Shown here piece after piece: positions 19,806-53,375 of a DNA stretch of 53,375 nt. Within the stretch, counting starts at the first letter, position 1. Each line of letters starts with the position of its first letter. A model generated the notes under the pieces. It did no database searches. It was not told the origin of the DNA and saw nothing but the letters and a program-made list of their open reading frames with translations. This DNA comes from a bacterium (GTDB taxonomy: Bacteria > SZUA-182 > DTGQ01 > JAFGSM01). Location of the stretch: contig JBLIRP010000005.1 of assembly GCA_049472355.1 (NCBI GenBank), positions 1 through 53,375 of the forward strand, read 5' to 3'. Both the position numbers and the translations under genes were made by a program.

Positions 19806-19843
19806 AAGGGGAATCAAGCTTATGCCTTGTCACCCTTGGCCTA

Positions 19844-22139: not shown

Positions 22140-23122
22140 TATAAAGGAAGCTCTCTATATAACGAACTATTCTTTATCAATGTTGAAAAAAGAAGTTTAC
22201 GAATCATTCTATTTTTGGATGCCAACAGAATAACCTTCATTCTTGGATCCAAGGTAATTGATATGTATTCCCTTTTGTAATTCGTTTTAAAATAATGCGT
22301 TATATTGTTACTTTGGTTTGGAAATTTGCAGATAATCTTGGCGAAATGTCTTTTGAACATACGTATTTTCCATTTTTTCAATACGTTTAATGGGTAAAAG
22401 CCTTTTGTGATTGCGAACTCATATGGTGATTCAATATATCTGAGATTAAGAAGGTGTTTTTCTAACTCTTGCGTCTTGCTTTCATTTGAATCGTGTTTAC
22501 GCCATACTCCAACACATTCCTTCACAAAACCTACCTTATTTTTCATCATCAGTCTTAGTACGGAGTCCCAATCAGAACTGAGTATATCTTCTTTATAATA
22601 GTTGATTTCCATGGCTTGCTGTCGATTGTAGAGAGTGGTAAGGTGAGGTATAGAGTAACCTTTAGGATAGTCCAGAAAAAGTCTATCTCCGTCCATTAGT
22701 GACGGAAGATTATCATTCATTTTGTCCTCAATGAAATTGCCTTCCTTCTCAAAGAAGACCTTCTGTTTGGCAAAGGACATGGCAAGGTCATTTTTTTGGA
22801 TAAGATAGACAGCTTTTTTGATATAAGTGCTGTCAATTAAATAATCATCTCCGTCCAACATCAAGGCCAAATCACCGGTTGCATATTCGTACAGGGATTT
22901 CCGATAATTGGCCACCCTGCCGATGCGAGTTGGATTTCTAAAATATTTGACTTCGCTTTTATGCGAGAATGAACGGAGAATTAAATCTGTTTCATCATCG
23001 GAAGAGTCGTCGCTTACAATGATTTCTATATTCGGATAATCTTGGGTAATGGCCGATTTGATAGCTTGAGCCAAATATCGTGCTTGATTGAATGCTGGAA
23101 TGATAATGGAAACCTTCATCAT
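22139..23122 (-). CDS. Glycosyltransferase family 2
   Basis: VSIIIPAFNQARYL, QDYPNIEIIVSDDSSDD and LDGDDY motifs. Confidence 0.9.
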   Translation of the reverse strand: MMKVSIIIPAFNQARYLAQAIKSAITQDYPNIEIIVSDDSSDDETDLILRSFSHKSEVKYFRNPTRIGRVANYRKSLYEYATGDLALMLDGDDYLIDSTYIKKAVYLIQKNDLAMSFAKQKVFFEKEGNFIEDKMNDNLPSLMDGDRLFLDYPKGYSIPHLTTLYNRQQAMEINYYKEDILSSDWDSVLRLMMKNKVGFVKECVGVWRKHDSNESKTQELEKHLLNLRYIESPYEFAITKGFYPLNVLKKWKIRMFKRHFAKIICKFPNQSNNITHYFKTNYKREYISITLDPRMKVILLASKNRMIRKLLFSTLIKNSSLYRELPL

Positions 23123-23264
23123 GTCTCAAAAACTTCATTCATTACAAGTTGATTTTATGAAAATTATTCTCGTAAAGGTACAAAAATTGGAAAGAAATAT
23201 TCTGACGATTAAAGTCAAAAAAATGAGTATTGTCACTTAGCTTCGTATAAAAATCCTCTCCTTC

Positions 23265-24137
23265 TCAGCCACTTCGCTTATCAATCATGTCTGCTAATAG
23301 GGCAAACAATGCCGTATTAAGGGTAAACATCAGGAGAATAAGTGTCTTATCAGTCAAATTGTTTAATAAAATAATATCATAAGAAAGGCTCCCCAAAAAA
23401 GATATTGATAGCAAAAGCACGAGAGGCAGAAAAACCCTTAATGGCGCAAAGTATATTCCAGTCCTTAAGATCAGCTCCATAAACCTAAGAGTGTCTCTTA
23501 CGGGTCTTATTTTGGATTTTCCTATACGTGGATAGTAATCGATCGGTACAAATTCGACCTCATAGTTGTTTCTGATCATTGCAAGGGTTATAGTAGTCGT
23601 AAAACTGAAGCCGTCCGGAAGGATATTCAAAAATCTTTCGGATATCGATCGTTTAAATACGCGCAGACCGGAATTCATATCAGGGACCTCTTGTCCGGCG
23701 AGCCACGAGACATATCTTTCGAGAAATAGTTTACTGATCTTTCTTGTTAGAGGATATGTCACGTTTTCACTCGTTCGGGCTCCCACAACCATGTCGGTGT
23801 TCTGGGCGATCTCAACCAATTCTTTGATCCGTACATTCGGATAGGTGCCGTCTGCATCCGTGATTACAATAATATCGGATGATGCATGACGAATGCCGGA
23901 TTTAAGAGCGGCTCCGTACCCGCGATTTGTTTTATGAGTTATGATATGAAGTTCGGGATCCTTTTCGGTCTCTTCCCTTAGGATTTCGGACGATCCATCC
24001 ATTGATCCGTCGTCCACCACTATTAACTCATAAGGCTGGGCACTCTGCAGGGTGCTTCGCAAGGAATGAATGGTCTTGAGAATCGCCTTTTCTTCGTTGT
24101 AGCACGGGATGATAAGAGTAAACCGAGGAGAAGGCAT
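23265..24137 (-). CDS. GT2 polyprenol-phosphate glycosyltransferase (DPM1/GtrB-like) with two C-terminal TM helices
   Basis: IIPCYNEE, VDDGSMDG, NRGYGAALKSG, TDADGTYP, DMNSGLR and RIGKSK motifs, plus a hydrophobic C-terminus. Confidence 0.85.
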   Translation of the reverse strand: MPSPRFTLIIPCYNEEKAILKTIHSLRSTLQSAQPYELIVVDDGSMDGSSEILREETEKDPELHIITHKTNRGYGAALKSGIRHASSDIIVITDADGTYPNVRIKELVEIAQNTDMVVGARTSENVTYPLTRKISKLFLERYVSWLAGQEVPDMNSGLRVFKRSISERFLNILPDGFSFTTTITLAMIRNNYEVEFVPIDYYPRIGKSKIRPVRDTLRFMELILRTGIYFAPLRVFLPLVLLLSISFLGSLSYDIILLNNLTDKTLILLMFTLNTALFALLADMIDKRSG

Positions 24138-24360
24138 TAACCCTCCTTATCTAAGATTTTGTTGAATGAATTAGTTCTCAGAAAGAAAAAATATATTAGA
24201 TAATCATGGATTTTGTCAATACGTTAAGCAGATCACAGTAAATTCGCAAATGGAGCCATGATCTATATAATGCAGTGAAATATTTATTATTTGTAATTTG
24301 ATATATAGAATGCTATCATTTCCAGCGCTGGAATTTCCTTATCGGAGAGGGTAGCTCACT

Positions 24361-26067
24361 ATGCTAAAAGAAAATAGGAAGACATTCATTACAGTCCTTC
24401 TCATGATTGGCATCGCCCTTATGGTTCGCCTGTGGGGAATAAATTATGGATTACCGGAGATAAAGTATATTGATGCTGAAAAGACCTTGCTGCCTGCCAA
24501 AAAGATTGCTCTCAATATCTTGACCGGCAACTGGAATATCGATCCGCAGAAGTATCAATATCCTACGGTTTATATTAATCTCATGGCCATTGAATTTATT
24601 GCCTATGGAGCGATTTATGGAGTCATAAACACCCATCTGGGAAGACATCGTTCATTTAAAGAGGCCATTCAAGCCCTTTATACGGCGCCGGAGCGGGGCT
24701 ATTTATACCGGGCCGTGCCGAGCGCCTTTCATCTCCTGGCGCGGATCACAAGTGCGATCGCCGGTGCGCTGACCGTCCTATTTGTTTTTTTAATAGGGAA
24801 AACAGCTTTTGAAGACAAAAGGATAGGTCTTGTCTCAGCCCTTTTTCTCGCATTTATGTTTGGCCACGTCAAGGATTCGCGATTTCCCATGACCGATGCC
24901 ACAATGTGCCTTCTTGGTATTATAGGGCTCTATTACTTGAGCAGGATAAGTGTTGATGATCAATTGAAGGATCATGTACTTTGTGGAGTATTTATCGGCC
25001 TTGGTATTTCCACCAAATATTTTCCGGGATTTTTCATAATAACCTATTTAATCATAATTGCCCCCAAATTGTTGGAGGGTTTAAAAAACAAAAAAGCGAA
25101 TCTTATGTATTACAAAAAACCACTGGCGGGATTCTTGATGATATTCGTCTTTTTCCTGGTGGGAACTCCGATATTTTTGGTCAGGTACAACAAATATCTC
25201 GGCATTGGTACCGGTGGGGTTGTCTCCGAATTGCAGTCGCAAGCAGGAGGAAAGATAGGCTACACTCAGAATTGGTATTTTGACCTTTTATTCAGTAGAT
25301 TTCCTATTAATAACGAACCTCTTGCAGCCCAGTCTCATTTATCTGTAATGGGAGGCCCGCTTCTTTTTTTCCTTATCTGCGGAATCATTTATGCCTTATA
25401 TTTAGTGCTGACAAATAAATCAAAGAATCGGTGGTTTGATATCGGAATCTGCATCACGGTTATTCTTTTCTATATGTTTTTAGCTGGTGAGGGAAAAAAG
25501 AAGCTTATTCGTTATTTCTATTTTCTCTATCCAGTGTATACGGTTATTGCTGCCAGATTTATTACCGAAATGGTGGATTTTTTCTTTAAAGAAAAGAGAT
25601 GGAATAAGTCCGTATTAGTCGTAGCGTCAATCGTTTTCGTCTTTCCGACAGGTATGCGTACGGTCAGACTTAATTACTTGCAGTCTCATATTGATTCACG
25701 TTTGATTGCAGGGAAATGGTTTGAGAGGAATATTCCACAGGGAAGTAAGGTCTTCGCACCGATACTCTATCCACCCATTATATCTACTGTCAAATATGAT
25801 GTGAGCTACTACAGGGGAGAGTCAATGAGGGATCTCAACCCTACGGTTGCTTTACTTAAAAGGGCAGGATTTGAATATATCATTACTTCTTCCTATGATA
25901 CGAGTGTATTTTATAGCCCGGACGCTATGAAACATAACCCGGAATTGACATTCAGGTGGAGAGGTTTTTATGACTCTTTAGATGATGACGCCGAACTGAT
26001 AATGCGTTTTGAGAGCAATCTCATAGATAAACCGGGTCCTGAAATCAAGATTTATAGGGTACCGTAG
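24361..26067 (+). CDS. GT-C fold membrane glycosyltransferase (ArnT/PMT_2 family)
   Basis: RLWGINYGLP, LARITSAIAG, SRFPMTD and GLGISTKY motifs, many TM segments and a C-terminal extracytoplasmic domain. Confidence 0.8.
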   Translation: MLKENRKTFITVLLMIGIALMVRLWGINYGLPEIKYIDAEKTLLPAKKIALNILTGNWNIDPQKYQYPTVYINLMAIEFIAYGAIYGVINTHLGRHRSFKEAIQALYTAPERGYLYRAVPSAFHLLARITSAIAGALTVLFVFLIGKTAFEDKRIGLVSALFLAFMFGHVKDSRFPMTDATMCLLGIIGLYYLSRISVDDQLKDHVLCGVFIGLGISTKYFPGFFIITYLIIIAPKLLEGLKNKKANLMYYKKPLAGFLMIFVFFLVGTPIFLVRYNKYLGIGTGGVVSELQSQAGGKIGYTQNWYFDLLFSRFPINNEPLAAQSHLSVMGGPLLFFLICGIIYALYLVLTNKSKNRWFDIGICITVILFYMFLAGEGKKKLIRYFYFLYPVYTVIAARFITEMVDFFFKEKRWNKSVLVVASIVFVFPTGMRTVRLNYLQSHIDSRLIAGKWFERNIPQGSKVFAPILYPPIISTVKYDVSYYRGESMRDLNPTVALLKRAGFEYIITSSYDTSVFYSPDAMKHNPELTFRWRGFYDSLDDDAELIMRFESNLIDKPGPEIKIYRVP

Positions 26068-26132: not shown

Positions 26133-27332
26133 TTAACAAAGAATGTCTTCGTTGTGATGAGGTTCACCTGTCCCAAGAATCCTCGACACATGATTCTCAA
26201 ACGAGATTGCAGTTGTTGTCCAGCTAAAGCCCTCCGCCAATTTCCTCGCTTCGGTCTGCATCTGCTGTCTGATATCGCGGTTTTGTCCAAGAGTGAATAG
26301 CGCATCTCCGATGTTTTGAGGGGTGATCCGGTCGAGCCGAATGCCTGCCCTTTTCCCTCCCAAGACATCCTGAGAGGCGGTGTCGGAGGTAACGACGCAG
26401 AGACCGGATGCCAACGCCTCCAATAGGACATTGGAAATCCCTTCAGCTCGGGATAAGAGAATCAGGACATCATGGCGCTGGTATAATTCCGGCATCCTAT
26501 CTCGTTCCACGGGCCTCATGATGTGTATCCGGATTCTGTCCTGGATCCGGCTTGCACGGGCCTCGATTTCGGGACGGAGTGGCCCGTCTCCAACTATGGT
26601 CATTTCCGCAGACACCTCACGTCCTGCAAGCCATTCAATGCCTTCGAGCATCTCAATACATCTTTTTCGCCCAATCAGTTGACCAACAAAAAGGATCCTC
26701 ATGTGATTATCCGTATGACGCCGCATCGGAGGTTGATATATGTCGGTATCGACTCCGTTGGGCAGATTGAACACCTTTCCTGTCCGTATGAATGTATCCG
26801 CCAGATAGAGGAGCCTGTTTCCATTTGCGAGCAGCAGATCCGCCTGCTTCCATACGGGCCGCAACAACGTGGTCCGGATGAAACGGAAGATGCCCCATCG
26901 GGCGTCGGAAAAGCCTGGTACATCGGATCCTCTCAGAGAAACGATTAATGGTATGGTGAATCGCCGTTTCAGGGCAATTGCAGCATGTCCGGATGGAAAG
27001 GCAAAGAATGCGGTCAGGGCATCCGGTCTGAAGCTGCGTACAAACGGAACAGAACTGTAGCGGAGGACCAGGTAGGAACGGAGCAATTCCCATGCAGATG
27101 GCGCCATGATCCTTCGGCGGCCGCAGGCGAAACGTATAATGACCCTGTCGAATCGATCCTTTTCATGGGTAGTCTTTTCATCCATGCCAATGGCCAGGAT
27201 CTGGATTGAATGGCCCCTCTGGGCCAATTTCTTGGTGAGGGCATCGAGTGCGGAAGACGCTCCCCCTCCGATCGGTGGAAATTCATGACTCAAAAAACTC
27301 AGATGCACTACATATCCTCCCGGATCTCCCAT
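26133..27332 (-). CDS. Glycosyltransferase family 4
   Basis: HEFPPIGGG, LRGSDVPG, PNGVD, LFVGQL..RK, VGDGP and EGISNVLLEALASG motifs. Confidence 0.9.
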   Translation of the reverse strand: MGDPGGYVVHLSFLSHEFPPIGGGASSALDALTKKLAQRGHSIQILAIGMDEKTTHEKDRFDRVIIRFACGRRRIMAPSAWELLRSYLVLRYSSVPFVRSFRPDALTAFFAFPSGHAAIALKRRFTIPLIVSLRGSDVPGFSDARWGIFRFIRTTLLRPVWKQADLLLANGNRLLYLADTFIRTGKVFNLPNGVDTDIYQPPMRRHTDNHMRILFVGQLIGRKRCIEMLEGIEWLAGREVSAEMTIVGDGPLRPEIEARASRIQDRIRIHIMRPVERDRMPELYQRHDVLILLSRAEGISNVLLEALASGLCVVTSDTASQDVLGGKRAGIRLDRITPQNIGDALFTLGQNRDIRQQMQTEARKLAEGFSWTTTAISFENHVSRILGTGEPHHNEDILC

Positions 27333-27386
27333 GAGACGACGGGCGGTGGTTTCAGGGATTGACCATCTTTCATTTTTTTTAGAACC

Positions 27387-29252
27387 TTATATGGAAATGT
27401 TGAACAATGTCATCCATCGAGCCAGGGTATAGATGCCCAATAGCTGTTTGGATGCATCCCGTCGCAGCGCCCGGTGTTCGGTAAGCAATTGCTCAATAAA
27501 TTTTACATTAAAAAGATTTGATAATGTACCTTGGGTTACAACATCCCGGAGGGAATCACCCAGGGTGCCACGAAACCATTGACCAACTGGGCTTTCAAAA
27601 CCATGCTTGGGACCCCTTGCGATCTCTTTGGGCAGGCATTCCCTGGCAAGGCGTCTGAGAATGACCTTCTTTTCCCATCCCTTAATCTTGAATGCCGACG
27701 GGAGTGAAAAGGCAAATTCAGCGAGATCTATATCGAGAAACGGCACCCGGACTTCCAGAGATGAAGCCATACTGGTGCGATCAACCAGAACGAGATAATC
27801 ATCTGCCATCATGGTGGAGATATCAGTCCATATTGCCCGTTGGAGGGAGTCAAAACCCGGTGCAGCATTAAAGACATTAATCAGCACATCATCTTTTGGA
27901 TATTCGAGACCAGGTATGAGGATGCCGATTTCCTTTGGTGAAAAGAGACCTACGGCAGTGGCATGAGAAGTGGCAGGTGATTCATTGGCGGTTTCCAGGA
28001 ATCTTCGAGCGCGTGAAACGAGAGATAATTTTTTGCCTCCCGCCGGGAGGGATTGCGCAATAGGCAAAAAGATTCGCGAATGATTGCGGATCGCAGCAAG
28101 GATCGCCGGAGGCCGGATTGCGAAGTAACGGTCATAGCCACCGAAAAGCTCGTCAGCACCGCTGCCATTCAGCGCAACCTTGACGTAACGGGCTGTTACC
28201 CGGCTGAGCAAAAAATTGGCAGGTATACTCAGGTTAGCGAATGGTTCGCCGAAGAGTTCAACCTGGGAATCGATCACCGATGCGTCCATCGGGGGGGATT
28301 TTTCGATATGGTGATATACACCCAAGTGTTTTGCTGTCCTTGCTGCACGGATCGATTCGTTGAATGATGCATCGTTGAACCCAACGGTATAGGCGTCCAC
28401 GGATTTTCCATTGGATGCCCGCTGTGATGCCCAGAGAAGAAGCCCGCTATCGATACCACCGCTTAGGAAAACCCCGACGGGGACATCGCTGATCATCTGT
28501 CTTCGTACCGATGCAACTATCAATCCGCGCAGTCGTTCTTCCGCTTCAGGTGCATTGATTTCCATCGGCTTGATCCGGAGGCGCCAAAAGGTTTTGGAGG
28601 AGGTAATTTCACCGTGGGTATCGATACTCATCCATGTGCCTGGTTCCAGTTTGCTCACTTCCTTTATGAAGGTGTGTGGAGCTGGGACATATTTGTACGC
28701 AAGAAAGGTGTGGAGGCATTGCAGATCAAGGGTCCTGGAAACACCGGGGAGGCCGAGAATCGGGAGGGGCTCGGAGCAGAAGGCGAAGAGTTTTTCATTA
28801 CTGCAGTAGTAAAGGGGCTTGATGCCGAAATGATCGCGCGCGATAAATATCCTATTCTCCATGCGATCATATATGGCAAAGGCAAACATACCATTGAGAT
28901 GTTCAACGACCATCTCTTTCCATTCTCTATAACCATGCAGAATGACTTCGGTGTCGGATCTGGTTCGGAACATATGACCGCGGGCGGACAACTCCCTGCG
29001 AAGTTCAGGAAAGTTATAGATTTCACCATTATACACGAGGATCGTTTGACCATCGGAACTTAGCATAGGCTGATGACCACTCTCAAGGTCGATGATACTC
29101 AGCCTGCGCATCCCGATAGCAACGCCGGGTGCTATGTAGTAACCCGAATCATCGGGCCCCCGGTGCCTGATTGCATCGAGCATCCCATCGAGCAGATCCT
29201 TCATTGTTGATGATGGGAGATGCGATGAAATGATGCCTGCAATTCCACACAT
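27387..29252 (-). CDS. asnB: Asparagine synthase (glutamine-hydrolysing) family amidotransferase, probably glycan-amidating
   Basis: MCGIAG, HRGPD, RRLSIIDL, NGEIYN, RDHFGIKPLY, LSGGIDS, GADELFGGY and EVRVPFLD motifs. Confidence 0.93.
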   Translation of the reverse strand: MCGIAGIISSHLPSSTMKDLLDGMLDAIRHRGPDDSGYYIAPGVAIGMRRLSIIDLESGHQPMLSSDGQTILVYNGEIYNFPELRRELSARGHMFRTRSDTEVILHGYREWKEMVVEHLNGMFAFAIYDRMENRIFIARDHFGIKPLYYCSNEKLFAFCSEPLPILGLPGVSRTLDLQCLHTFLAYKYVPAPHTFIKEVSKLEPGTWMSIDTHGEITSSKTFWRLRIKPMEINAPEAEERLRGLIVASVRRQMISDVPVGVFLSGGIDSGLLLWASQRASNGKSVDAYTVGFNDASFNESIRAARTAKHLGVYHHIEKSPPMDASVIDSQVELFGEPFANLSIPANFLLSRVTARYVKVALNGSGADELFGGYDRYFAIRPPAILAAIRNHSRIFLPIAQSLPAGGKKLSLVSRARRFLETANESPATSHATAVGLFSPKEIGILIPGLEYPKDDVLINVFNAAPGFDSLQRAIWTDISTMMADDYLVLVDRTSMASSLEVRVPFLDIDLAEFAFSLPSAFKIKGWEKKVILRRLARECLPKEIARGPKHGFESPVGQWFRGTLGDSLRDVVTQGTLSNLFNVKFIEQLLTEHRALRRDASKQLLGIYTLARWMTLFNISI

Positions 29253-44395: not shown

Positions 44396-44427
44396 AATAT
44401 ATAATTAAAATATATAATCGATAGTTA

Positions 44428-44456
44428 TTGACATTTTTCTATTTTTATAATAAAAT
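44428..44456 (+). promoter_or_regulatory. Near-consensus sigma70 promoter
   Basis: TTGACA-N17-TAAAAT with an AT-rich upstream region; predicted TSS near 44463. Confidence 0.75.
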
Positions 44457-44462
44457 TATAAT

Positions 44463-44711
44463 AAAGATCGGTGTACGCCGAATCGTTCCATAGTTTAATC
44501 TCTAAGGGTCTGATTCCCCAAGGTATGTTTCGATACACTAAAACCCTCTGGTGATACCATGAGGGTGCTGCAGGGAGGCTCCCTTGCGAATGAGGTTATC
44601 GTTTTTCCACCTTTGATAAGAATTGAAGCATACACATACTATTGAATATCAGAGAGAGGTTAGAGGGGCTTATTAAAGCGATTGACAGTTGCCTGACAGT
44701 GGCGTAGCGCC
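44463..44711 (+). ncRNA. Candidate structured non-coding RNA of unknown family
   Basis: Five nested long-range helices with several G-U pairs close a junction carrying three hairpins. It starts at a predicted TSS and no ORF covers it. Confidence 0.65.
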
Positions 44712-45051
44712 TACATTATGCAATAGATAGGGAACCATGCAATGTATCCACTATGTGTACCGGAGATGTCATTGACCTGACGTTCCCCGGTCTCCCGAAT
44801 TCCTTCCCAGGCTTTACCAGTCAGTAAGCTCTATGAGAAACCCTTTAACATTCTCCACGGTGTCCGATTACGGCCATGAAGAATAGTCTCTTGTTCGCCG
44901 GATGAATAATCCCTTTTTGATTATTGCCCGTGTCTTCGCGGGCGGTAAGGGCAGGAGGTGATATGCCGGATAGATTGCTCGACAAAAGAGGTTTGGTCGG
45001 ATTGTAATCCAGCGATACATTGGTTTAAGAAATCCAGGGAGGTGGAATACC

Positions 45052-45423
45052 ATGAAAGGCAATGTATTAGCAGCAATTATGGGATCCATTGTAATTATTG
45101 TCCTTGTTTTTGCTTTTGCTGTCCCTTGTTCATCCCAGTTTATCCCTTATCCGTTCTGGATGCCGATAAATCCGTTTTTCTCGCCCACCTTCGGGCTGTT
45201 TCCGGCTGTTTCTCCGGTGACGGCATTTTTTCCTGCATCGTTCAGCCCGGTGCTGGGTCCTTACACCGCATTGCCTTCGTTTGCAAGCAGAAATGCGGCA
45301 GCGACTCTCGTCGTGCTGCCGCCGGCTGCACCTGCGGTGACCGCCTATGCACCCTTGGGTACGCTCAATATCACGCCGTCCAGCCTGGTGTTGCTGATAC
45401 TCTACTTGACACTTGCGGAATAG
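45052..45423 (+). CDS. Secreted hydrophobic Pro/aromatic-rich protein, array member 1
   Basis: SD GGAGGT; signal peptide ...PCSS|Q; RNAAAT motif; only 2 charged residues in the mature part. Confidence 0.8.
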   Translation: MKGNVLAAIMGSIVIIVLVFAFAVPCSSQFIPYPFWMPINPFFSPTFGLFPAVSPVTAFFPASFSPVLGPYTALPSFASRNAAATLVVLPPAAPAVTAYAPLGTLNITPSSLVLLILYLTLAE

Positions 45424-45565
45424 GCGGTGGAGGAATGCACATGGGACGGAAATTCCCATCCATACATAACAATGTTTCAGCCCCTTGTTTGTCCATACTC
45501 ATACGAGGTGATGGGTGAGCCTGATAATGCTGAAATGGACATGCGTTATTGAGAGGTGATTGATA

Positions 45566-46117
45566 ATGAAACCGTCTAAGGGTATTCTGGTTTTTTGTAT
45601 TTGCATCGTGTTTTGTTGGGGGGGGCTGCCCCAAACAGGAACCGCTCAGGGCCTGTTTGGGCCATGGGGGGCTCCGTGGCTGAGTAATCCCTTCTATTCC
45701 CCATTTTCCCTGTACGGTGGGGCATTTCCGCCCTTTTTCGGCAGGAACCCGGGATGGGGTTATCCCTTGCAGCCTGTCATACCCCCCGCTGCAGCGATCC
45801 TTTCTCCTTACCAGCGCAGGCCGAACGCGACCATCATTTTTACTGCCCCCACATTGACGGCCGTGGGCGGGACCGCCCCGGGAGTGATCCTTATCGGCGC
45901 AACAGGGGTGCTGGGTGCAACTGCACCCGTGGTGGCCCCTGCAACGGCGGTCGCCGCATCGGTGCCTCCCAGCCTCATAACCGCAGCCGCCCCGGCCCCT
46001 GCTCCGCTATTGAGCATACTATCGGTGCTGTATGCCAGCGCCCTTCTTGACGGAAAGGCATTGCTTTCCACGGCGAATCCGCTCCTTTTCGCCTATCTCA
46101 CGACGCTGGTTTTATGA
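45566..46117 (+). CDS. Secreted hydrophobic Pro/aromatic-rich protein, array member 2
   Basis: SD GAGGTG; signal peptide ...TGTA|Q; RRPNAT motif; C-terminus paralogous to member 3. Confidence 0.82.
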   Translation: MKPSKGILVFCICIVFCWGGLPQTGTAQGLFGPWGAPWLSNPFYSPFSLYGGAFPPFFGRNPGWGYPLQPVIPPAAAILSPYQRRPNATIIFTAPTLTAVGGTAPGVILIGATGVLGATAPVVAPATAVAASVPPSLITAAAPAPAPLLSILSVLYASALLDGKALLSTANPLLFAYLTTLVL

Positions 46118-46172
46118 GGGACCGCTTTTAACATTGGAGATATATGCATTTGACTGGTAGGAGGTGTCATTC

Positions 46173-46631
46173 ATGATGCGACATGATCGAGAAATCGTGG
46201 TGCTTTTTTGTGTGCTTTTCGTGTGCCTGGTATTCGGTATGTGCGGAAGCTCATCCGCCCAGTATCCGTATCCTTTCAACCCGTTTTTCGCCTACAATCC
46301 CTTTTATTATCCCTATCCGCCGGCGCCCTTTTCCTTTTCTCCGTTGATTCCGACCTATCCCTTTCCGGCTTCTCCGTTGATTTCCCCGTTGTCTTATCCT
46401 GCTCCGCGCATTGGTGCCGCGACCATCATTCTCACCAATCCGACCGCCGGGACGGTGAGCGTATTAAATCCGACTGTTGCTTCGGCACCCGTTTTGAACA
46501 CGGCGGTGACGGCTTCTCCGCCGCCATTGCTCTCTATCCTGGGGATCATTTACACCAGTGCGCTCTATGAGGGGGCATTGAGCACGGCGAATCCCCTGCT
46601 TTTCGCCCTGCTCCAGAGTCTTTTCCTGTGA
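46173..46631 (+). CDS. Secreted hydrophobic Pro/aromatic-rich protein, array member 3
   Basis: SD AGGAGGTG; signal peptide ...SSSA|Q; RIGAAT motif; LSTANPLLFA shared with member 2. Confidence 0.82.
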   Translation: MMRHDREIVVLFCVLFVCLVFGMCGSSSAQYPYPFNPFFAYNPFYYPYPPAPFSFSPLIPTYPFPASPLISPLSYPAPRIGAATIILTNPTAGTVSVLNPTVASAPVLNTAVTASPPPLLSILGIIYTSALYEGALSTANPLLFALLQSLFL

Positions 46632-46699
46632 CATGGGGGGCAGTCGTTTCGAGTAGCATGACATAGGTATTGCCATGGAATGCGAGAAAGGTAGGTCAG

Positions 46700-47497
46700 A
46701 TGGCAATGAGAAGACATAGATGGCTTTATTTCTTCATGATCGTTGTATTGTGTATCTGTATTGGGATTTTCAGGCCAATCCCGCTTGGATCGCAGTTTTC
46801 CGGTTTTACTCTCGCGCCTCCCAATCCTGCGGTGGGATACGGCGGATTATTCAATCCCTATGTGTTCCTGCCGGGCCTCGGTTTAAAGGCTGCGGCATCC
46901 ACCTATTCGCTGAATTCACTTCTTCCGTTTGCCTATGGGGGGTTGGGATTCGGGAATTCATTATTCGGACGCCCGGCAACGGCCATCGGATTATTCAATC
47001 CCTTGTTTGGTTTCGGCACCTCATGGGGACGTACACCCTTTGTGGGGACCTCCTTTGGCACCCCGTTTTCCCTTCCTGGACTCACCTCCGGGATTTCACC
47101 GATTTCCGCATCAGTGCTGCCTGCGGTGAGGGGTGCGGCACAGTCAGGCACCTGGACCGGCAGTTGGCAGAGCACCTATATCGCCTTTATTGTGCTCTGG
47201 AACAGCGGTCCCATGTATCTGAATATCGTCGAGGACCCGCTGCTGGGGGTGGTGACCGGTACCGCCGCGCTTCAGGGAAGCCGGTACGCGAGCATACCCT
47301 TTGCGGTAGACGGGGTCCTGGTAAACGATACCATAAACCTGACGGGATTTCTTGGAACCGGCTATGATATAATGCTCACCTGCATTTTGACCTCGCCAAC
47401 CACCATGACCGGTTTTTATACGGTGTTGGGAACCACCATTCCGGTCATGGATGAGGGGATCATCAATCTCACCATGAATCCCCCTGTTTTATTGTAA
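46700..47497 (+). CDS. Secreted protein, array member 4, with a Gly/Phe-rich tract and a probable C-terminal beta-barrel domain
   Basis: Signal peptide ...PLGS|Q; RGAAQ motif followed by GTWTGSW and alternating beta-strand patterns. Confidence 0.8.
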   Translation: MAMRRHRWLYFFMIVVLCICIGIFRPIPLGSQFSGFTLAPPNPAVGYGGLFNPYVFLPGLGLKAAASTYSLNSLLPFAYGGLGFGNSLFGRPATAIGLFNPLFGFGTSWGRTPFVGTSFGTPFSLPGLTSGISPISASVLPAVRGAAQSGTWTGSWQSTYIAFIVLWNSGPMYLNIVEDPLLGVVTGTAALQGSRYASIPFAVDGVLVNDTINLTGFLGTGYDIMLTCILTSPTTMTGFYTVLGTTIPVMDEGIINLTMNPPVLL

Positions 47498-47632
47498 ATC
47501 CTGATGGTTTGGTTCAGGTAGAGGTGATATGCGCAACGATTGGATAATCATCGAGAGGTTTGCAGGACGATCCCCTTTGAAATGCGCTCATAAGAAGAAA
47601 CAAGGGATGTTTCAGAGCGGAGGTTGATTGGT

Positions 47633-48037
47633 ATGAAGGTTTCACTAATGCTGTTTCTTGTTTGCACAATTTTGTTCATGTGGGTGATGGTATATCCGAT
47701 GCTTGTACATGCACAATTCCTTCCCCCGCTGTTACCCTTTTTTCCGTATCCCCCCTGGTACGTAAACCCGTTTCCTTTCTATCCGTTCGGATATTTCGGG
47801 TTCCCGGTGGTCCCCCGCATTGCCGCCTCACCCCTTCTGGTGGAGCCCAGCCTGAGGTTTGCCAATGCCCCGGTCACCATAACGGTGCCGTCGCTGACCG
47901 TGACCACTCCACCCTTGACCGCAATCGTCAATCTGCTCGATCCTGCGGTCGTGGCAAGCAACATTGCGATACTGACCACCAATTTTCCGCTTTTGTACGA
48001 TGCATTGCTCACCACCTTTCAGTTGCCCGTTATTTAG
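47633..48037 (+). CDS. Secreted hydrophobic Pro/aromatic-rich protein, array member 5
   Basis: SD GGAGGT; signal peptide ...VHA|Q; RIAAS and RFANAP motifs. Confidence 0.82.
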   Translation: MKVSLMLFLVCTILFMWVMVYPMLVHAQFLPPLLPFFPYPPWYVNPFPFYPFGYFGFPVVPRIAASPLLVEPSLRFANAPVTITVPSLTVTTPPLTAIVNLLDPAVVASNIAILTTNFPLLYDALLTTFQLPVI

Positions 48038-48053
48038 GAATGGAGAGATATAT

Positions 48054-48593
48054 ATGAAACGAAGTTTTGCGGCCTTGATGCTCATTGTACTGCTTCTTTG
48101 TGTGAGCACAGTGGCAGGGGCTCAATTTCCCTTCCGGCTGGGATATCCGTATCCCTTTGCGTATTCAATGCCATTCTGGGGTGTCTTTCCCCCTCTCCTG
48201 CCTGCAGGCCCATTTTTTTCGTTCGGGGCCGCACCTCGTCCGCTGTTCCCGGCGCTTGCCCCTCCCGCACCTATGTTACGGCGGGCAAGGGCCACGGTGA
48301 CCATCCTTTTTAATCCGGCCCTGTCGGTTATCCAGGTCACCGTGCTTCCCTTGAGTCCCATCGTACCTGTGGTACCCACGGCCCTAGTGGCACCCACGAC
48401 CACCATTGCACCGGCGCTTCCGCCTTCCGCGCTCCTGCTGCTCCCCTTGCTTTCGGGGCTTGGCACATCAACGCAACCCAACCTCAATTTCAACAGCACC
48501 AGCACGGTGGCTACCCCTGCACCGGCTCCGGTGGTGAACAGCACAAGCAGCGTCGGTCTTACCGGCCTTACCGCACTCCTGCCGTTTATATAG
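48054..48593 (+). CDS. Secreted hydrophobic Pro/aromatic-rich protein, array member 6
   Basis: SD GGAG; signal peptide ...AGA|Q; RRARAT motif; no acidic residues. Confidence 0.82.
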   Translation: MKRSFAALMLIVLLLCVSTVAGAQFPFRLGYPYPFAYSMPFWGVFPPLLPAGPFFSFGAAPRPLFPALAPPAPMLRRARATVTILFNPALSVIQVTVLPLSPIVPVVPTALVAPTTTIAPALPPSALLLLPLLSGLGTSTQPNLNFNSTSTVATPAPAPVVNSTSSVGLTGLTALLPFI

Positions 48594-48608
48594 GGAGAGG
48601 AAACGAGT

Positions 48609-48645
48609 CCCGGCCTCGAACCTTCGTGGAAGGTTCCAGGCCGGG
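48609..48645 (+). terminator. Strong hairpin closing the six-gene array
   Basis: CCCGGCCTCGAACCTT-loop-AAGGTTCCAGGCCGGG, 15 nt after the last stop codon. The U-tract is weak. Confidence 0.6.
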
Positions 48646-48818
48646 TATGCACGGTCATTTCATTGGTGCAACGAGTGAAAAATTCTCTCAGGAAAGCCGA
48701 ACCACCGGTACATGGAAACGCAACATCCAGGGAGTAAACTATGCCACCGCACGCAGCGGGGTATCAAAAGAAATTTTTTCAAACCACCCCAAGGAGCGGG
48801 GAATTAAATCCATAGGGA

Positions 48819-49679
48819 TTAAAGCCCCTTGCCCCAGTCCTCGATTTCGGCCTTCTGGTACCCCTCCTGCTGGAGCGTCATGTCCAGGTTGATGACCAGG
48901 CCTGATTGCCTCTTCAACTCATCGTCCTTGGCGAGTTTGCCATGGCGGGCCAGGGCCGCCGAAAGATCCTCCACCGCCTTTATCAAGGCCTTTTCCAGGG
49001 ATTGGTGGGGTATGATCGTCCCCGGGTTGAACCGGGGTGGAACCCCCCCATCCTCGGCAATAGGCTCAGAGAAGTGAGCAATATGGCGCATCTTCTTCAT
49101 GGCCTGGTCCATGAGCTGCCAGCCGATCTTGCCCTTTTTCTGAAATACCCACGAGGAGCGGATGTGCTGCAGCATCTCGGTGTATTTATTGGTTACTTCA
49201 GCCTGGAGCGTGGTGACGAATCCTTCAGGCAGTTCACCCTGTTGTTCAGCCAACCCCGCCTTCTGTTCAGGGCTCAGCTTGCTCAGTTTGCGTGCAAACT
49301 TCCTGGCATGTCCGGCGGATTCCCAGGCCTCCCTGTGGAGTACCCGCTTTATATGGGGATCATCCACTGTATCCGCCTCGCTGTTGTAGTGGGGAATCAG
49401 GTTCTCTTCATATTGTATATAGGATGTGAGGATCGTCTCACGACTGGTGGGGTCATAGGGATACGGCGCAGGGGCCAGATTCGGCTCCCCCCCGAGATCT
49501 CCTACGATCATTCCCAGCCAATGCATATGCCACATCTCTTCCCGTGAGATGGAGATAAGGCTTGAACCCAGGGGGGTATCCTCTCCCTCGATCCATCCAT
49601 GAACAAGATACCGTATGATCGCGGCATGTTCCTCCGCCATATCCCTGTTGAGCATATCGATCAGGGCCTGTCGTTCCAT
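48819..49679 (-). CDS. Tandem ferritin-like (bacterioferritin/rubrerythrin-type) domain protein
   Basis: The first domain has EEHAAIIRY, EEMWH and ESAGH diiron-type motifs; the second repeat is degenerate (KKMRH). SD GGAGGTG. Confidence 0.78.
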   Translation of the reverse strand: MERQALIDMLNRDMAEEHAAIIRYLVHGWIEGEDTPLGSSLISISREEMWHMHWLGMIVGDLGGEPNLAPAPYPYDPTSRETILTSYIQYEENLIPHYNSEADTVDDPHIKRVLHREAWESAGHARKFARKLSKLSPEQKAGLAEQQGELPEGFVTTLQAEVTNKYTEMLQHIRSSWVFQKKGKIGWQLMDQAMKKMRHIAHFSEPIAEDGGVPPRFNPGTIIPHQSLEKALIKAVEDLSAALARHGKLAKDDELKRQSGLVINLDMTLQQEGYQKAEIEDWGKGL

Positions 49680-49894
49680 GATCACCTCCCGTAATAATTA
49701 TTGGTTACATATTCTTAAGGAATATTCACTATTGTACTGACCGGCGGTCCGCCAAGCAAATTACTATATCAGAAAGTAAGGGAATGATGAAATACCCCGA
49801 ACGTGGACAGCAATTCTGAGATGCATCCATATCGGGAATAAGATATTCATATACAACAAGGGGATTGAAGGGAGAACGCCGTTTCGGATAAATG

Positions 49895-50097: not shown

Positions 50098-50814
50098 TTA
50101 ACCCTTTTTGAACTCCTGTTCCGATGCCTCCTCAAAGAAGTGTCCGTTCACGATGGATGAGATGGTTCCCTGTCTGAATACCGCGTCATACCAAAAGGCC
50201 AGATAGGTATGGATCAGGATGAAGATGATAAAGAGCCACATGAGTACACCGTGAATGAATCGCGTCCCTGCAAGACCACCGAAGATCCCCCTCTGGATGG
50301 GACCAAGGACCGCGGCGGAAAACTTGGCAAGCCCGGCCTGGTGGAGCGATCCGTAAAGGACCATGCCGGTCACTGCCTCGATGGACGTAATGACAAAAAG
50401 GAAGAGATACGCAGCGGATTGCAAAGAGCCATAGAGCCCGCAGTGCTCGGGCGGATCGGTCGAAATCAGGGTATAAAACTTGACCGCCTGCCACGTGCAC
50501 TTGAGGTTGGTCCATGCGTAGAAATCCTTCCAGTCCGCATGGAAACGCGAGAAGAAGGCGAGGTAGATCCTCCAGAGGAGCAGGGCGACCAGCAGGAGGC
50601 CGAAGATGAGGTGGATGAAGCGCATATTGGCCATCAGGAACTTCTCGGTGGTCACGCCCGCACCGACGGTAAACGGCTTTGCAATATAAAATCCGGTAAC
50701 AATGAGCAGCACGATGTCGATGGCCATGGCCCAATGGTTGACGCACATGGCCACCGACCAGTGCTTGATTGCCTTATACGGCAATCGCTTTGGAGCAGGG
50801 CTTTCCTTTGCCAT
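50098..50814 (-). CDS. [NiFe]-hydrogenase b-type cytochrome subunit
   Basis: NHWAMA..LIVTGFYI, RFIHL, RFIHG..W and IHTY heme-ligand His residues, 4 TMs and an ISSIVNG tail. Confidence 0.92.
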   Translation of the reverse strand: MAKESPAPKRLPYKAIKHWSVAMCVNHWAMAIDIVLLIVTGFYIAKPFTVGAGVTTEKFLMANMRFIHLIFGLLLVALLLWRIYLAFFSRFHADWKDFYAWTNLKCTWQAVKFYTLISTDPPEHCGLYGSLQSAAYLFLFVITSIEAVTGMVLYGSLHQAGLAKFSAAVLGPIQRGIFGGLAGTRFIHGVLMWLFIIFILIHTYLAFWYDAVFRQGTISSIVNGHFFEEASEQEFKKG

Positions 50815-50828
50815 GGTGGTTTCCTCCG

Positions 50829-52502
50829 TTATTGAATTTTAAACCTCTTGATCTCGTTCGTCCTCGGGTCGATGATGTGGATGGCACAGGCCAGACATGG
50901 ATCAAAGGAGTGGATGGTCCTGATGATCTCCAGGGGTTGATCGATGTTGGCCATGGTGGTGCCGATGAGCGCCTCCTCGTACGGCCCTCTCTGTCCCTTG
51001 TCGTCCCTCGGGGAGGCGTTCCATGTCGAAGGAACCACTGCCTGGTAGTTGGCGATCTTCTTGTTCTCGATGCGTATCCAGTGGCCCAGGTCTCCTCGGG
51101 GCACCGCAGTCAATCCCCGTCCCTCGGCGGAGTTCGGGATGTCGCAGCGTGTCCAGGTGCGCTCATCTCCGCCCTTGATATTGGTCACCAATTCGGTCAC
51201 CCATCCCTCGACGTTCCGGGCGACCAGGATGCCTTCGATGCAGCGGCCTGCTGTTCTTCCCAGGGTGGAGAAGAGGGCACTGGCCGGGATCTGTGCGGCA
51301 TCCAGGGCGAACTCCACAAGGGGCTTGATCCTTGTGTCACCCTTTGCATATCCGATGATCATGCGGGCCAGAGGGCCGACCTCCATGGGTTTTCCGTCGT
51401 ACCGCGGCGCCTTCACCCAGGAATATTTCTCGTCTCCCTTGACAAACCCCTCAGGACCGAATCCGGTGTAGTGGGGCTCGGTCACGCCGTCGGAGGGATG
51501 CAGGCTGGCATTCCCTTTGTACCATGAGTGGGTGACATTCTCCGTGATCTTGGTCTCATCGAGATCGTCTACCTTGTTCAGATTCCCGTTCATCACGATG
51601 CCCTTGGGAAGGAGGGTCTCATTCCAGTCGTCGTCCAGGGGAAATCCGCCGTAGGCGAGGTAGTTCTTGGTGCCCGCGCCGATGTTCGCCGCGCCCTCAT
51701 CCTTGTAATACTGGGCGGCGAGGAGGACATCGGGGAGATAGGCGGTCTCGAAGAACTTCTTTACCTCCTTGAGACGGTAAAGGTACTGGCCAAGCCGGTG
51801 CGCATCCAGGGCATCCATGACGCTGGTCACCCCTCCGACCACCAGGCTTTGCGGATGCGGATTCTTCCCACCGAAGATGGCCATCATCTGCGCTGCAACC
51901 CGCTGTACCGCCAATGCATCGAGATAGTGAGAGGCGATCACCAGGTTTGCCTCCGGGGGGAATTTGTATGAGTCATTTCCCCAGTAGGCATGGGCAAAGG
52001 GACCCAGCCGGCCTGATTTGACGAAGGTGTTGAGCCGCTTTTGCACCGCCTGGTAGTGGGAGACGGAGCAGTTGTACGGATCGTCGGAGAAGCTGCGCGC
52101 GAGATCCACCGCCTTCTTGGGATCGGCGGAAAGTGCGCTCACGATGTCCACCCAGTCAAGGCCGTGAAGATGATAGAAATGGACTATTTTGTCGTGAAGG
52201 TACTGAGAACCCTTTATCAGGTTCCGTATGAGCCGGGCATTTTTGGGCGGGGTCACCCCGATGGCGTTTTCCACCGCCAGGGTTGCCGCCTCATAGTGCG
52301 AATAGGTACACACACCGCAGAATCGCTGGGTCATCAAACCGGCATCCCGGGGGTCCCTCCCCTGGAGAATAACCTCGATCCCCCTCCAGAGGGTGGCGGA
52401 ACTCCATGCATTGGTAATGCGGTTTGCATTATCCACCTCCACCTCGATCCTGAGATGACCCTCGATACGTGTAATAGGATCCACAATAAGCCGTTTTGCC
52501 AT
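50829..52502 (-). CDS. Group 1 respiratory [NiFe]-hydrogenase large subunit
   Basis: DPITRIEGH, L1 motif RFCGVC, HFYHLH and L2 motif DPCLACAIH followed by a cleavable tail. Confidence 0.97.
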   Translation of the reverse strand: MAKRLIVDPITRIEGHLRIEVEVDNANRITNAWSSATLWRGIEVILQGRDPRDAGLMTQRFCGVCTYSHYEAATLAVENAIGVTPPKNARLIRNLIKGSQYLHDKIVHFYHLHGLDWVDIVSALSADPKKAVDLARSFSDDPYNCSVSHYQAVQKRLNTFVKSGRLGPFAHAYWGNDSYKFPPEANLVIASHYLDALAVQRVAAQMMAIFGGKNPHPQSLVVGGVTSVMDALDAHRLGQYLYRLKEVKKFFETAYLPDVLLAAQYYKDEGAANIGAGTKNYLAYGGFPLDDDWNETLLPKGIVMNGNLNKVDDLDETKITENVTHSWYKGNASLHPSDGVTEPHYTGFGPEGFVKGDEKYSWVKAPRYDGKPMEVGPLARMIIGYAKGDTRIKPLVEFALDAAQIPASALFSTLGRTAGRCIEGILVARNVEGWVTELVTNIKGGDERTWTRCDIPNSAEGRGLTAVPRGDLGHWIRIENKKIANYQAVVPSTWNASPRDDKGQRGPYEEALIGTTMANIDQPLEIIRTIHSFDPCLACAIHIIDPRTNEIKRFKIQ

Positions 52503-52586
52503 TGTATTAGCCCCCTTTTAATCTATTGATTTGCCTGAGCAAAATCGAACATTCATGCTGCCTGAGACCTGCCGGTGAAGCTATTC

Positions 52587-53375
52587 CTATTTACCGGGTT
52601 GTCTGATGGCGCTTCCGATGGCATGGATGGCGATCCCTGCCACGGTCACCGCAGTCAGGGCGATTCCCACCTTGTCCGCGGTTGCCTCGATTCCACCAAA
52701 GGGGAGTACGGCTCCCTCATGGATGGGTTTTTCCAAAGGTGCCATCTTATCCCAGAAATCGGGCTCGGTGCAGCCGATACACCCGTGTCCCGCCATGACC
52801 GGCCATGACGTCGCCTGGTTGAATCGCACCTGGGGGCAATTGGCGTAGGTATAGGGCCCTTTGCACCCCATCTTGTAGAGACACCATCCCCTTTTGGCAT
52901 ACTCGTCGCCCCATTCCTCGACAAACTCACCAGCATCGTAGTGGGGACGCCGCTCGCAGAAGTCGTGAATGCGTTTTCCATATGCCCATACCGGCCGTCC
53001 CAGGCCATCCAGACCGGGAAGGGACCCGAAGAGGATGTAGTGAAGGATGGTGCCCACAAAATTGATGCCGTTGGGCGGGCATCCGGGGATATTCACGGTG
53101 CTGATCCCGAGGGCGTCACCAATCCCTTTGGCGTTGGTGGGATTCGGATGGGCTGCCGGGACATTCCCGAAGGCGGAACATGAGCCGATGCATATGACCA
53201 TGGCGGCCTTCGATGTCACCTCCTTTGCAATCTCATAACCGGTCTTGCCCTTGGCCCCTATGGTGAGGAACTTTCCGTCCATGCCCATGGGAATGGCCCC
53301 TTCGATGACGCATACGAACTGGCCGGGAAATTTCTCCAGCGCCTCCTCAAGACAGGCCTCTGCCTGATGCCCTGC
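52587..53375 (-). CDS. [NiFe]-hydrogenase small subunit (5' end beyond the window)
   Basis: GSCSAFG, PGCPP, IHDFCERR, WCLYKMGCKGP and GHGCIGC motifs plus a C-terminal TM anchor. The frame is open to the window edge. Confidence 0.96.
   Translation of the reverse strand, partial: AGHQAEACLEEALEKFPGQFVCVIEGAIPMGMDGKFLTIGAKGKTGYEIAKEVTSKAAMVICIGSCSAFGNVPAAHPNPTNAKGIGDALGISTVNIPGCPPNGINFVGTILHYILFGSLPGLDGLGRPVWAYGKRIHDFCERRPHYDAGEFVEEWGDEYAKRGWCLYKMGCKGPYTYANCPQVRFNQATSWPVMAGHGCIGCTEPDFWDKMAPLEKPIHEGAVLPFGGIEATADKVGIALTAVTVAGIAIHAIGSAIRQPGK

Follow-up and report, generated by a model that had tools for sequence, protein, structure and literature searches.

Chaplins and rodlins of Streptomyces, hydrophobins and BslA are small, exported and hydrophobic proteins that occur as several paralogues and are thought to form coats by self-assembly, with two conserved Cys residues in chaplins and eight in hydrophobins. 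Type V pilins (FimA/Mfa) of Bacteroidota are lipoproteins with two beta-sandwich domains, and they form ordered sets of differentiated paralogues with a conserved Arg at the junction of the N-terminal part and the body and with conserved hydrophobic C-termini. The curli (CsgA/B) and Fap subunits are unfolded, Sec-exported and beta-prone, are encoded in operons with accessory proteins and are poorly modelled as monomers, and curli are rich in Gln, Asn and Gly. PEP-CTERM/exosortase systems with PrsT combine many low-complexity paralogues that bear signal peptides and C-terminal tags with a large tetratricopeptide repeat (TPR) protein. Here we describe an array of six genes, m1 to m6, that is like each of these systems in some respects and differs from them in others. 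The array occupies positions 45052-48593 on the + strand of the window, which is the whole stretch of 53,375 nucleotides of DNA that was analysed (contig JBLIRP010000005.1) and which belongs to the genome, designated G000, of an uncultured anaerobic bacterium. This organism is a diderm, as four Omp85 homologues, LpxC and secretins were found in G000. The six encoded proteins are nearly uncharged, are predicted to be exported, and may be the structural subunits from which a charge-neutral material, in the envelope or outside the cell, is built, a reading that we put forward tentatively and at somewhat less than an even chance.

A sequence-only reading of the window had proposed six co-oriented open reading frames (ORFs) with one shared architecture, and this was confirmed on the + strand, where the genes do not overlap when the likely starts, chosen from Shine-Dalgarno (SD)-like motifs and orthologue lengths, are used. 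The architecture claimed, namely a Sec-type signal peptide with a Gln right after the cleavage site, a Pro/aromatic tract, an Arg-led motif and a hydrophobic C-terminal part, was measured on a family alignment of 81 sequences, which comprised the six window proteins, relatives from ten loci and public homologues. One Arg was invariant (81/81) and one Gln was present in 79 of the 81 sequences. The residue at -1 to this Gln was A, S, C, G or T in 79/79 and that at -3 was G, V, C, A or S in 75/79, which fits the signal peptidase I pattern, so that the mature proteins are predicted to start with Gln; we infer from this pattern that signal peptidase I cleaves before the Gln, which may then be cyclised to pyroglutamate. 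The tract between Gln and Arg had a median length of 56 aa, with 21% F/Y/W, 23% Pro and, at the median, one charged or His residue, and it holds the conserved motifs Q-[FY] and NP[FY]. The Arg, usually with a Pro at -3, sits at the border of two compositional halves, and is followed by x-[APG]-[AN]-[AQ]-T-[IV]-[IT] and then by mostly Ala, Thr, Val, Pro and Leu, this post-Arg part having medians of 89 aa and one charged residue. The C-termini of the window proteins, in gene order, are LTLAE, TTLVL, QSLFL, NPPVLL, QLPVI and LLPFI, and the ends are conserved within subtypes as ...TLAE in m1, ...TL[VIL][LF] in m2 and m3, ...LPVI in m5 and ...LLP[FLI]I in m6. Counting Asp, Glu, Lys and Arg in the mature parts gave two charged residues each for m1 and m3, exactly as had been noted from the sequence, five each for m2, m5 and m6, and 12 for m4, and Lys made up two of the 871 residues of the six mature proteins.

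By BLAST, m2 and m3 were the only clear pair of paralogues (35% identity, E 3e-22, or 2e-13 when composition-corrected), other pairs gave E values of 1e-6 to 1e-9 uncorrected and of 7e-4 to 0.3 composition-corrected, and m4 had no significant similarity to the other five. Because it shares the motifs and the operon position, m4 was nevertheless counted in the family. The earlier description of the six as paralogue-like therefore stands for m2 and m3, is weak for the other pairs and, for m4, refers to motifs and position and not to BLAST similarity.

These proteins differ from each of the described systems. Compared with chaplins (PF03777) and hydrophobins, to which no Pfam match was obtained, they are larger, have a single Cys among all six mature chains, located in m4, carry a long Pro/aromatic tract and an invariant Arg, fall into six ordered subtypes, are linked to a sulfatase-TPR protein described below and come from a diderm anaerobe. 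Unlike type V pilins, they have no lipobox (A or S at -1, Gln at +1 and no conserved Cys after the h-region) and no Pfam match, a predicted structure of m2 shows no beta-sandwich, and the likeness to Arg cleavage in pilins is one of sequence. No curlin or Fap repeat was found with Pfam or NCBIfam and no CsgG/FapF-type pore among the scanned neighbours of 11 loci, and in contrast to curli the composition is dominated by Pro, aromatic residues, Ala, Thr and Val. The C-termini differ from those of PEP-CTERM proteins in having no PEP motif, transmembrane (TM) helix or basic tail. For the N-terminal Gln the closest precedent is the Q-rule, in which the substrates of signal peptidase I have a Gln at +1 that glutaminyl cyclase turns to pyroglutamate (PMC5837995, PMC10653852); the rule is specific to Bacteroidetes according to the abstract of PMC5837995, whereas here the Gln, at a predicted site, is concentrated in an uncharged class of proteins. 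The plant-type glutaminyl cyclase PF05096 was not found in G000, which is 87.5% complete, in a search that did not cover the mammalian-like type II enzyme.

None of the searches for relatives led to a described family. At E <= 1, m1, m2, m3, m5 and m6 matched no Pfam family and m4 gave a chance-level NCE101 match only, and NCBIfam had no match for the six proteins. Against PDB sequence profiles, the family alignment gave 0 matches at E <= 1 and the m4 alignment three chance-level matches with E of at least 0.17, and neither m2 nor m6 had a relative or usable look-alike in the ESM Atlas. Queried with m2, a word-indexed search returned 41 proteins, all of them a 'hypothetical protein' of unclassified metagenome-assembled genomes, and a HMMER profile search of 1.84 billion representatives returned 72 at E <= 0.001. 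In a phylum sample of 20 species genomes, 13 of which belong to the order of G000 and seven lie outside it, the family was present in 11, all of one order: six of the six genomes of the GTDB family f1, which includes G000, five of the six of f2 and none of the eight others. A limited literature search turned up no account of such proteins or of fusions between a sulfatase and a TPR region. By every search run on these sequences, the family and the operon type are new, in agreement with the sequence-only reading, which had recognised no known family; neither a characterised family nor a lack of signal peptides came up in the searches and the alignment, and arrays conserved in relatives, which it had named as support for novelty if no Pfam match was obtained, were found.

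Evidence that the genes are functional came from comparison with the syntenic array of the sister genome G009, in which the ratio of non-synonymous to synonymous substitution rates (dN/dS) was 0.31 for m1, 0.27 for m2, 0.25 for m3, 0.27 for m4 and 0.47 for m5, which by this sequence measure indicates purifying selection on five of the six genes. For m6 the ratio was 0.93, calculated from 8 synonymous and 19 non-synonymous differences, and an m6 orthologue with 37% identity (E 3e-11) was present in another GTDB family. SD motifs of the GGAGG/GAGG type precede m1, m2, m3 and m5, so that the clear SDs claimed earlier were found for these four genes, with weaker ones before m4 (AAGG) and m6 (GGAG). 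In metatranscriptomes, five of seven runs from two studies contained part of the stretch, the best with 0.67 of the sampled words, and contigs from four runs of one study mapped on the array and its leader, several of them with no differing letter, including one over 46163-46822 in the m3 region. A contig on the leader, 44542-44912, reached a depth of up to 23 in run X2, and stretches with no contig include 42617-44155 (all four runs) and 47747-48772 (run X1), these gaps carrying no weight. The RNA evidence is limited, as it consists of assembled contigs from one study in which strand and level are unseen and DNA carry-over is possible. Homologues were thus found and the array is present in RNA libraries, where a lack of both would have spoken against the sequence-only reading. 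That the ORFs are non-functional, being chance or decaying genes in compositionally odd DNA, would agree with the ratio of m6 and with the inflation of similarity scores by low complexity, but is hardly credible in view of the low ratios of the other five genes, the orthologues with invariant residues in two GTDB families, the SD motifs and the RNA-library contigs on the array.

The gene order was compared across 11 loci of eight genomes from two GTDB families, with each member typed by its best match to m1-m6. Everywhere the subtypes followed the order m1, m2 and/or m3, m4, an optional gene for the sulfatase-TPR protein, m5 and m6, with one to three copies each of m1 and m4. The m1 type stood first in nine of the 11 loci, and m5, where present, lay directly before m6 and behind either the sulfatase-TPR gene or m4. 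The flanking genes differed between genera, except for a ferritin-like gene within the genus of G000 (g1). That a fixed order is kept while the flanks differ argues for non-redundant subunits, as in multi-subunit fibres. The ordered subtypes, the ancestral sulfatase-TPR protein and the many other uncharged arrays of the genome had all been missed by the sequence-only reading. At one locus, a short array on contig C103 of genome G007 is adjoined by a transglutaminase-like gene and ABC transporter genes.

The linked protein, hereafter SULF-TPR, is encoded after m4 in seven of the 11 loci; it has 945-1017 aa, bears a signal peptide and joins a PF00884 sulfatase domain to a long TPR region. In the orthologous arrays of genomes G010 and G011 its gene lies between m4 and m5. 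All nine SULF-TPR proteins that were scanned matched PF00884, at E values of 1e-44 to 1e-54. In all seven proteins examined at the nucleophile position, T-L-P-S-H stands in place of the formylglycine motif C/S-x-P-x-R, and against sulfatase 4upl the Thr aligns with the catalytic Cys and the His with the Arg. A Thr nucleophile in an enzyme of the alkaline-phosphatase superfamily speaks for phosphoryl or related transfer and not for classical sulfatase chemistry. The TPR region reached 235.4 bits against the PrsT model (TIGR02917), for which the cut-off is 312.2, and unlike PrsT it is fused to a sulfatase-fold domain. Paralogues of SULF-TPR were found in all 13 order genomes, with 5-14 per genome and seven matches in G000, and in the seven genomes outside the order the sulfatase domain gave one weak match (E 1.9e-31, in G019). 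In a quick maximum-likelihood tree of 45 chosen top-scoring sulfatase domains, labelled by neighbour, the 11 copies adjoining the present family and one with unexamined neighbours formed one group with an SH-aLRT (Shimodaira-Hasegawa-like approximate likelihood ratio test) support of 97, and copies adjacent to a second uncharged family, PPYN, fell in two other groups; inherited synteny contributes to this pattern. The linkage across two GTDB families despite changing flanks argues for a functional pair of SULF-TPR and the m1-m6 family. Proximity within the genome was rejected as evidence for the pairing: 12 of 65 uncharged genes lie less than 10 kb from a SULF-TPR gene against 1.7 expected, but these form only three arrays, and counted as arrays the excess is not significant by itself, so that the case is carried by the linkage between genomes. 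Near the SULF-TPR gene of contig C58, an FGE-sulfatase-domain protein is encoded at C58:30259-31767.

Structure prediction gave contrasting pictures of two of the subunits. The AlphaFold2 (AF2) model of m2, built from a 51-sequence alignment, had a mean pLDDT (predicted local distance difference test) of 54.8 and showed no structure beyond the signal helix and, at the C-terminus, two or three helices, which span the very conserved LLSILxVLYASAL...LSTANPLLFAYL module, and the ESM model had a pLDDT of 0.39, so that m2 is predicted to be largely disordered. A complex prediction with four copies of residues 80-185 (score 0.01, mark 0.42) has no bearing either way on self-association. In m4, by contrast, a conserved 120-residue domain lies behind the Arg motif and after a 120-aa low-complexity tract, and of the 40 columns that are invariant in an alignment of 14 sequences, 37 fall on the motif Arg (R154) or behind it. 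AF2 predicted this domain to be an eight-stranded up-and-down beta-barrel, with the Arg motif running straight into the first strand; over residues 161-270, nine of the 11 full ten-residue blocks averaged a pLDDT of 77-87 and block 171-180 averaged 57. A barrel of the m4 type is encoded in 16 ORFs of G000, mostly behind Gly/Tyr/Leu repeats.

The predicted m4 barrel shares its eight-stranded up-and-down fold with avidin/calycin and OmpA-type barrels. Foldseek returned avidins and de novo barrels with E values of 6e-5 to 5e-4, a probability of 1.00 and target-normalised TM scores of 0.56-0.70. The best VIA matches were likewise de novo barrels and avidins (Z 12-14.2, root-mean-square deviation (rmsd) 2.0-2.5 A, nearly the whole target covered), those to avidins having Z 11.7-12.4 and rmsd 2.0-2.4 A, and the sequence identity in structural matches was ~10-15% for most and at most 22% (bradavidin). 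In contrast to avidin and OmpA barrels, m4 has no Pfam match, 11-22% identity to avidins, a nearly uncharged surface and the 120-aa tract in front. As modelled, the fold alone is compatible with either a soluble or a membrane-embedded barrel. The barrel proteins, m4 included, could be small outer-membrane barrels of OmpA/OmpX/OmpW size, with the uncharged tracts and the other subunits forming a periplasmic gel or tether layer instead of an external fibre. In keeping with this, VIA gave Z 10.9-12.1 to the TM domain of OmpA, the N-terminal barrel of OprF, OmpW and PagL, close to the ~12 for avidins, the loops at one end of the modelled barrel (10, 9, 5 and 7 residues) exceed in length the turns at the other (5, 2 and 4), which resembles outer-membrane proteins, the organism is a diderm and encodes four Omp85 homologues, and no surface-export route is linked to the arrays. 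Yet the best matches are soluble barrels, the strands are short (7-10 residues), no Pfam outer-membrane protein family is matched, and the C-termini are P-x-[IL] where the outer-membrane protein signal usually ends in an aromatic residue, and on balance we consider this arrangement a serious rival but an unlikely one.

A barrel of the avidin/calycin size class of ligand binders could also serve as the ligand pocket of hydrophobic sorbents or carriers. Acting in the periplasm or on the cell surface, these would bind or solubilise hydrocarbons, polyprenyl or quinone lipids, elemental sulfur or another hydrophobic substance. The extremely hydrophobic, uncharged composition would suit such a role, as would the polyprenyl synthase, NusG_II and Hpre_diP_synt_I genes that lie upstream of the array in g1, but the neighbours differ in other genera, six differentiated and ordered subunits with dozens of paralogues would not be expected of a carrier, and most of each protein is predicted to be disordered; we regard a carrier function as improbable. 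The m4 model bears also on the suggestion, made in the sequence-only reading, that the proteins are pre-pro-peptide precursors, which would be cut at the invariant Arg to release hydrophobic C-terminal peptides or domains that act in signalling, as antimicrobials or as surfactants. Nothing spoke for it except that Arg, which stands at the compositional border in all 81 sequences, usually with Pro at -3. In m4, however, the Arg motif leads directly into the first strand of the folded domain, the N-terminal tract has conserved motifs of its own and is hence not a throw-away pro-region, products of 70-120 aa would be large for such peptides, and Pfam scans of neighbours found no protease linked to the arrays, which makes release of peptides a very unlikely purpose of the array.

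The reading that we prefer is the structural one, in which one lineage-restricted operon would encode six differentiated, Sec-exported and nearly uncharged subtypes. Signal peptidase I would cut before the Gln, and its cyclisation to pyroglutamate would remove the N-terminal charge. Behind the Gln, a presumably disordered Pro/Phe/Tyr tract would lead to the Arg-x-Ala-Ala-Thr/Gln motif, which may open a beta-strand, and then to a subtype-specific hydrophobic module. The subunits would self-associate into a neutral sheath, coat or matrix of the envelope or cell surface, with m4 as a folded barrel node and the other subunits as chains that are cohesive and either unfolded or beta-prone. Encoded between m4 and m5 of the ancestral operon, the periplasmic, Thr-type SULF-TPR would most likely mature, modify or chaperone the subunits. 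We propose that the subunits are exported, carry pyroglutamate and self-associate, and we likewise propose their location and the part played by SULF-TPR. The predictions of a disordered m2 and a folded m4 barrel fit a material of folded nodes and cohesive chains; the aromatic/Pro tract, the C-terminal part of beta-branched residues broken by Pro and Gly, and the rarity of Lys and Cys fit a cohesive, protease-poor and neutral material; and the large genomic investment in uncharged exported proteins, 65 ORFs in G000, also fits the structural reading.

Several observations weigh against this reading. The SULF-TPR gene is not in the arrays of the window, G009 and genome G008, and the window array may rely on the copy retained in a second, paralogous operon of G000 on contig C17. 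No pore, usher or sortase-like gene was linked to the arrays in Pfam scans of the flanking genes, and Sec export reaches the periplasm only, so that a surface location has no linked outer-membrane route identified for it; a novel pore may be present among the neighbours with no Pfam match. No known fibre-subunit fold or repeat was found in Pfam, NCBIfam or PDB profiles. To these are added the high dN/dS of m6 and the limits of the RNA evidence given above. Overall, the interpretation offered in the sequence-only reading, namely a self-assembling hydrophobic coat, sheath or fibre analogous to chaplins or spore-coat proteins, or else a set of pre-pro-peptide precursors, is partly supported.

The array is part of a larger class of uncharged exported proteins, defined by a signal-peptide-like N-terminus, no TM-like stretch and a mature D+E+K+R content of at most 6%, to which 65 of the 2653 scored ORFs of G000 (at least 100 aa) belong, the genome-wide median charge being 23% of the whole protein. 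These 65 span several unrelated groups, namely Gly/Tyr/Leu/Met repeats, PPYN, Tyr/Thr/Pro-rich proteins and the present family, and six examples from the other groups had no Pfam match. The Gly/Tyr/Leu/Met repeat proteins (YGGLYGG, SPYGYSGYGY, GMYGSGYG) are many and have 0-2% charged residues; most carry AYY or a similar AY[YFS] just behind the hydrophobic signal-like segment, and the example at C58:36590-37084 had no Pfam match. PPYN proteins have ~190 aa with the motif Q-x-W-x-ALPPYNxLWPLWSP...LPVQP...NPWPPS and occur in 34 copies in G000 and as 67 matches in genome G012. A third family, of ~130-155 aa and rich in Tyr, Thr, Pro and Phe, carries FPTSYYYT...PYFGSPYQTTFPYTTLPGTPIPYARF and ends in ...YLSWVLLQ. 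The PPYN family and the barrel were each present in 13/13 order genomes and in 0/7 other genomes of the phylum. SULF-TPR genes lie beside PPYN arrays on C82 (nine PPYN genes, then the enzyme), on C52 (three PPYN genes) and at many places in other genomes, and one lies beside Gly/Tyr genes on C58.

Two terminal features recur in the class. The dipeptide [AS]Q was present in the c-region window of 32/59 uncharged exported ORFs, against 88/440 other signal-peptide-like ORFs and 90/1160 controls. A P-[FILVPA]-[IL] C-terminus was found in 18 of the 65 uncharged ORFs and in 18 of 2647 others, at least 8 of which are of the same class; this end is ~40-fold enriched in the uncharged class and common to unrelated families, being present in 71/120 public PPYN homologues, with a similar P-x(1,2)-[ILVF] in 25/28 m4 homologues. 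The P-x-[IL] C-terminus may be a sorting or recognition tag. TPR domains are known to read C-terminal peptides, as PEX5 reads SKL. A wider proposal, which is possible and yet rather doubtful, is that one order of an uncultured phylum evolved a charge-free envelope or extracellular material from dozens of low-complexity, Sec-exported proteins per genome. These would come from at least four unrelated families (the present one, PPYN, the Gly/Tyr repeat proteins and the Tyr/Thr/Pro proteins), each with its own clade of periplasmic Thr-type SULF-TPR proteins of the alkaline-phosphatase superfamily, in which the TPR regions would read P-x-I-COOH tags and the catalytic domains would modify or couple subunits; the window operon would then be one complete subunit set.

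Table 1. Positions of the array, its flanking elements and related genes elsewhere in G000 (positions are those of the window unless preceded by a contig name).
Feature	Position	Strand	Description
m1	45052..45423	+	123 aa, mature ~95 aa, 2 charged residues; C-terminus LTLAE
m2	45566..46117	+	183 aa; conserved SPYQRRPNATIIF block and C-terminal LSTANPLLFAYL module
m3	46173..46631	+	152 aa, mature 123 aa, 2 charged residues; m2 paralogue
m4	46700..47497 (start 46700 or 46706)	+	~265 aa; low-complexity Gly/Phe/Pro tract, then predicted barrel after R-G-A-A-Q
m5	47633..48037	+	134 aa; C-terminus QLPVI
m6	48054..48593	+	179 aa; conserved ATVTILFNPALSVIQVTVLP block; C-terminus LLPFI
Promoter-like site	44428..44456	+	TTGACA-17-TAAAAT; 11/12 consensus matches; 596 nt 5' of m1
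Long 5' leader or intergenic region before m1	44457..45051	+	RNA contigs on 44542-44912 and 44883-45339
GC-rich hairpin after m6	48609..48645	+	no U-tract
Ferritin-like protein	48819..49685	-	288 aa, no signal peptide; PF00210 match
SULF-TPR paralogues	C17:2251-5298, C58:39380-42526, C82:659-2875, C52:4030-5340, C13:25913-27220		G000
Gly/Tyr/Leu/Met repeat proteins	for example C56:23052-23825, C58:34914-37084, C74:12797-13291, C116:26302-27153, C57:13982-14854, C104:14911-15618		G000
PPYN examples	C82:3676-10787, C52:1293-3173, C27:5589-7407, C116:57289-59818		G000
Third uncharged family	C20:1363-1752, C127:311-757, C129:16291-16689, C2:45428-45898		G000

The sequence-only reading had placed the array between a consensus promoter and a strong hairpin (Table 1). 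A close match to the promoter consensus is indeed present, but far upstream of m1, and the region holds nine promoter-like sites against 4.5 +/- 2.0 in shuffles; the first hexamer region of the site is conserved in G009. The hairpin is strong as well (-35 kcal/mol over a 77-nt stretch, z = -3.46, equalled by 2/200 shuffles), but lacks a U-tract and is therefore not a canonical intrinsic terminator. One contig of run X2 joins 48643 to 48815, leaving out 171 nt from the end of the hairpin. Over the leader and its flank (44396-45051, ~650 nt), conservation between G000 and G009 was about equal to that of coding sequence, and in G008 only short blocks and the ribosome-binding site were conserved. 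The leader may be a regulatory RNA; it had no Rfam match at E <= 1, and the whole window gave only a tRNA against Rfam.

Downstream of the array, a gene matching the ferritin-like gene in size and place adjoins the window-type array in 5/5 loci of g1, the Ferritin-like Pfam match being confirmed in the window, G008 and G011 and the copies of G009 and G010 being assigned by position and length only. This pattern may be simple inherited synteny, and it is doubtful whether the ferritin-like gene and the array are functionally linked. At 50098-53288, on the - strand of the window, lies a NiFe hydrogenase operon for a small subunit, a large subunit and cytochrome b, which is well covered by RNA-library contigs, including one of 2953 nt in X1. 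In G009, a 572-aa ankyrin-repeat protein is encoded between the ferritin-like gene and this operon (L027:13029-14747, contig C10), and the window has no counterpart at that place. Farther upstream, a low-GC island at 16001-26000, with ~ten ORFs and 27-42% GC against 50-61% in most of the remaining window, lies just 5' of glycosyltransferase and asparagine synthase genes (26133-29252); this island is probably a surface-polysaccharide cluster that was acquired.

In this lineage, protein families that lack any annotation account for about 2-3% of the genes. The recurrent pairing of SULF-TPR with uncharged proteins points to an undescribed maturation enzyme and offers a handle for biochemistry. 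If the structural reading is true, bacteria would here be building an envelope or matrix in a new way, out of charge-avoiding proteins with hardly any Lys, Asp or Glu, an N-terminus that pyroglutamate can block and many aromatic and Pro residues, and with a chemistry nearer to that of eukaryotic cohesive low-complexity and elastomeric proteins than to that of known bacterial fibres. Such a material would give the cell a surface that may be insensitive to salt and pH, with few protease sites and poor mineral nucleation in sulfidic, metal-rich sediments.

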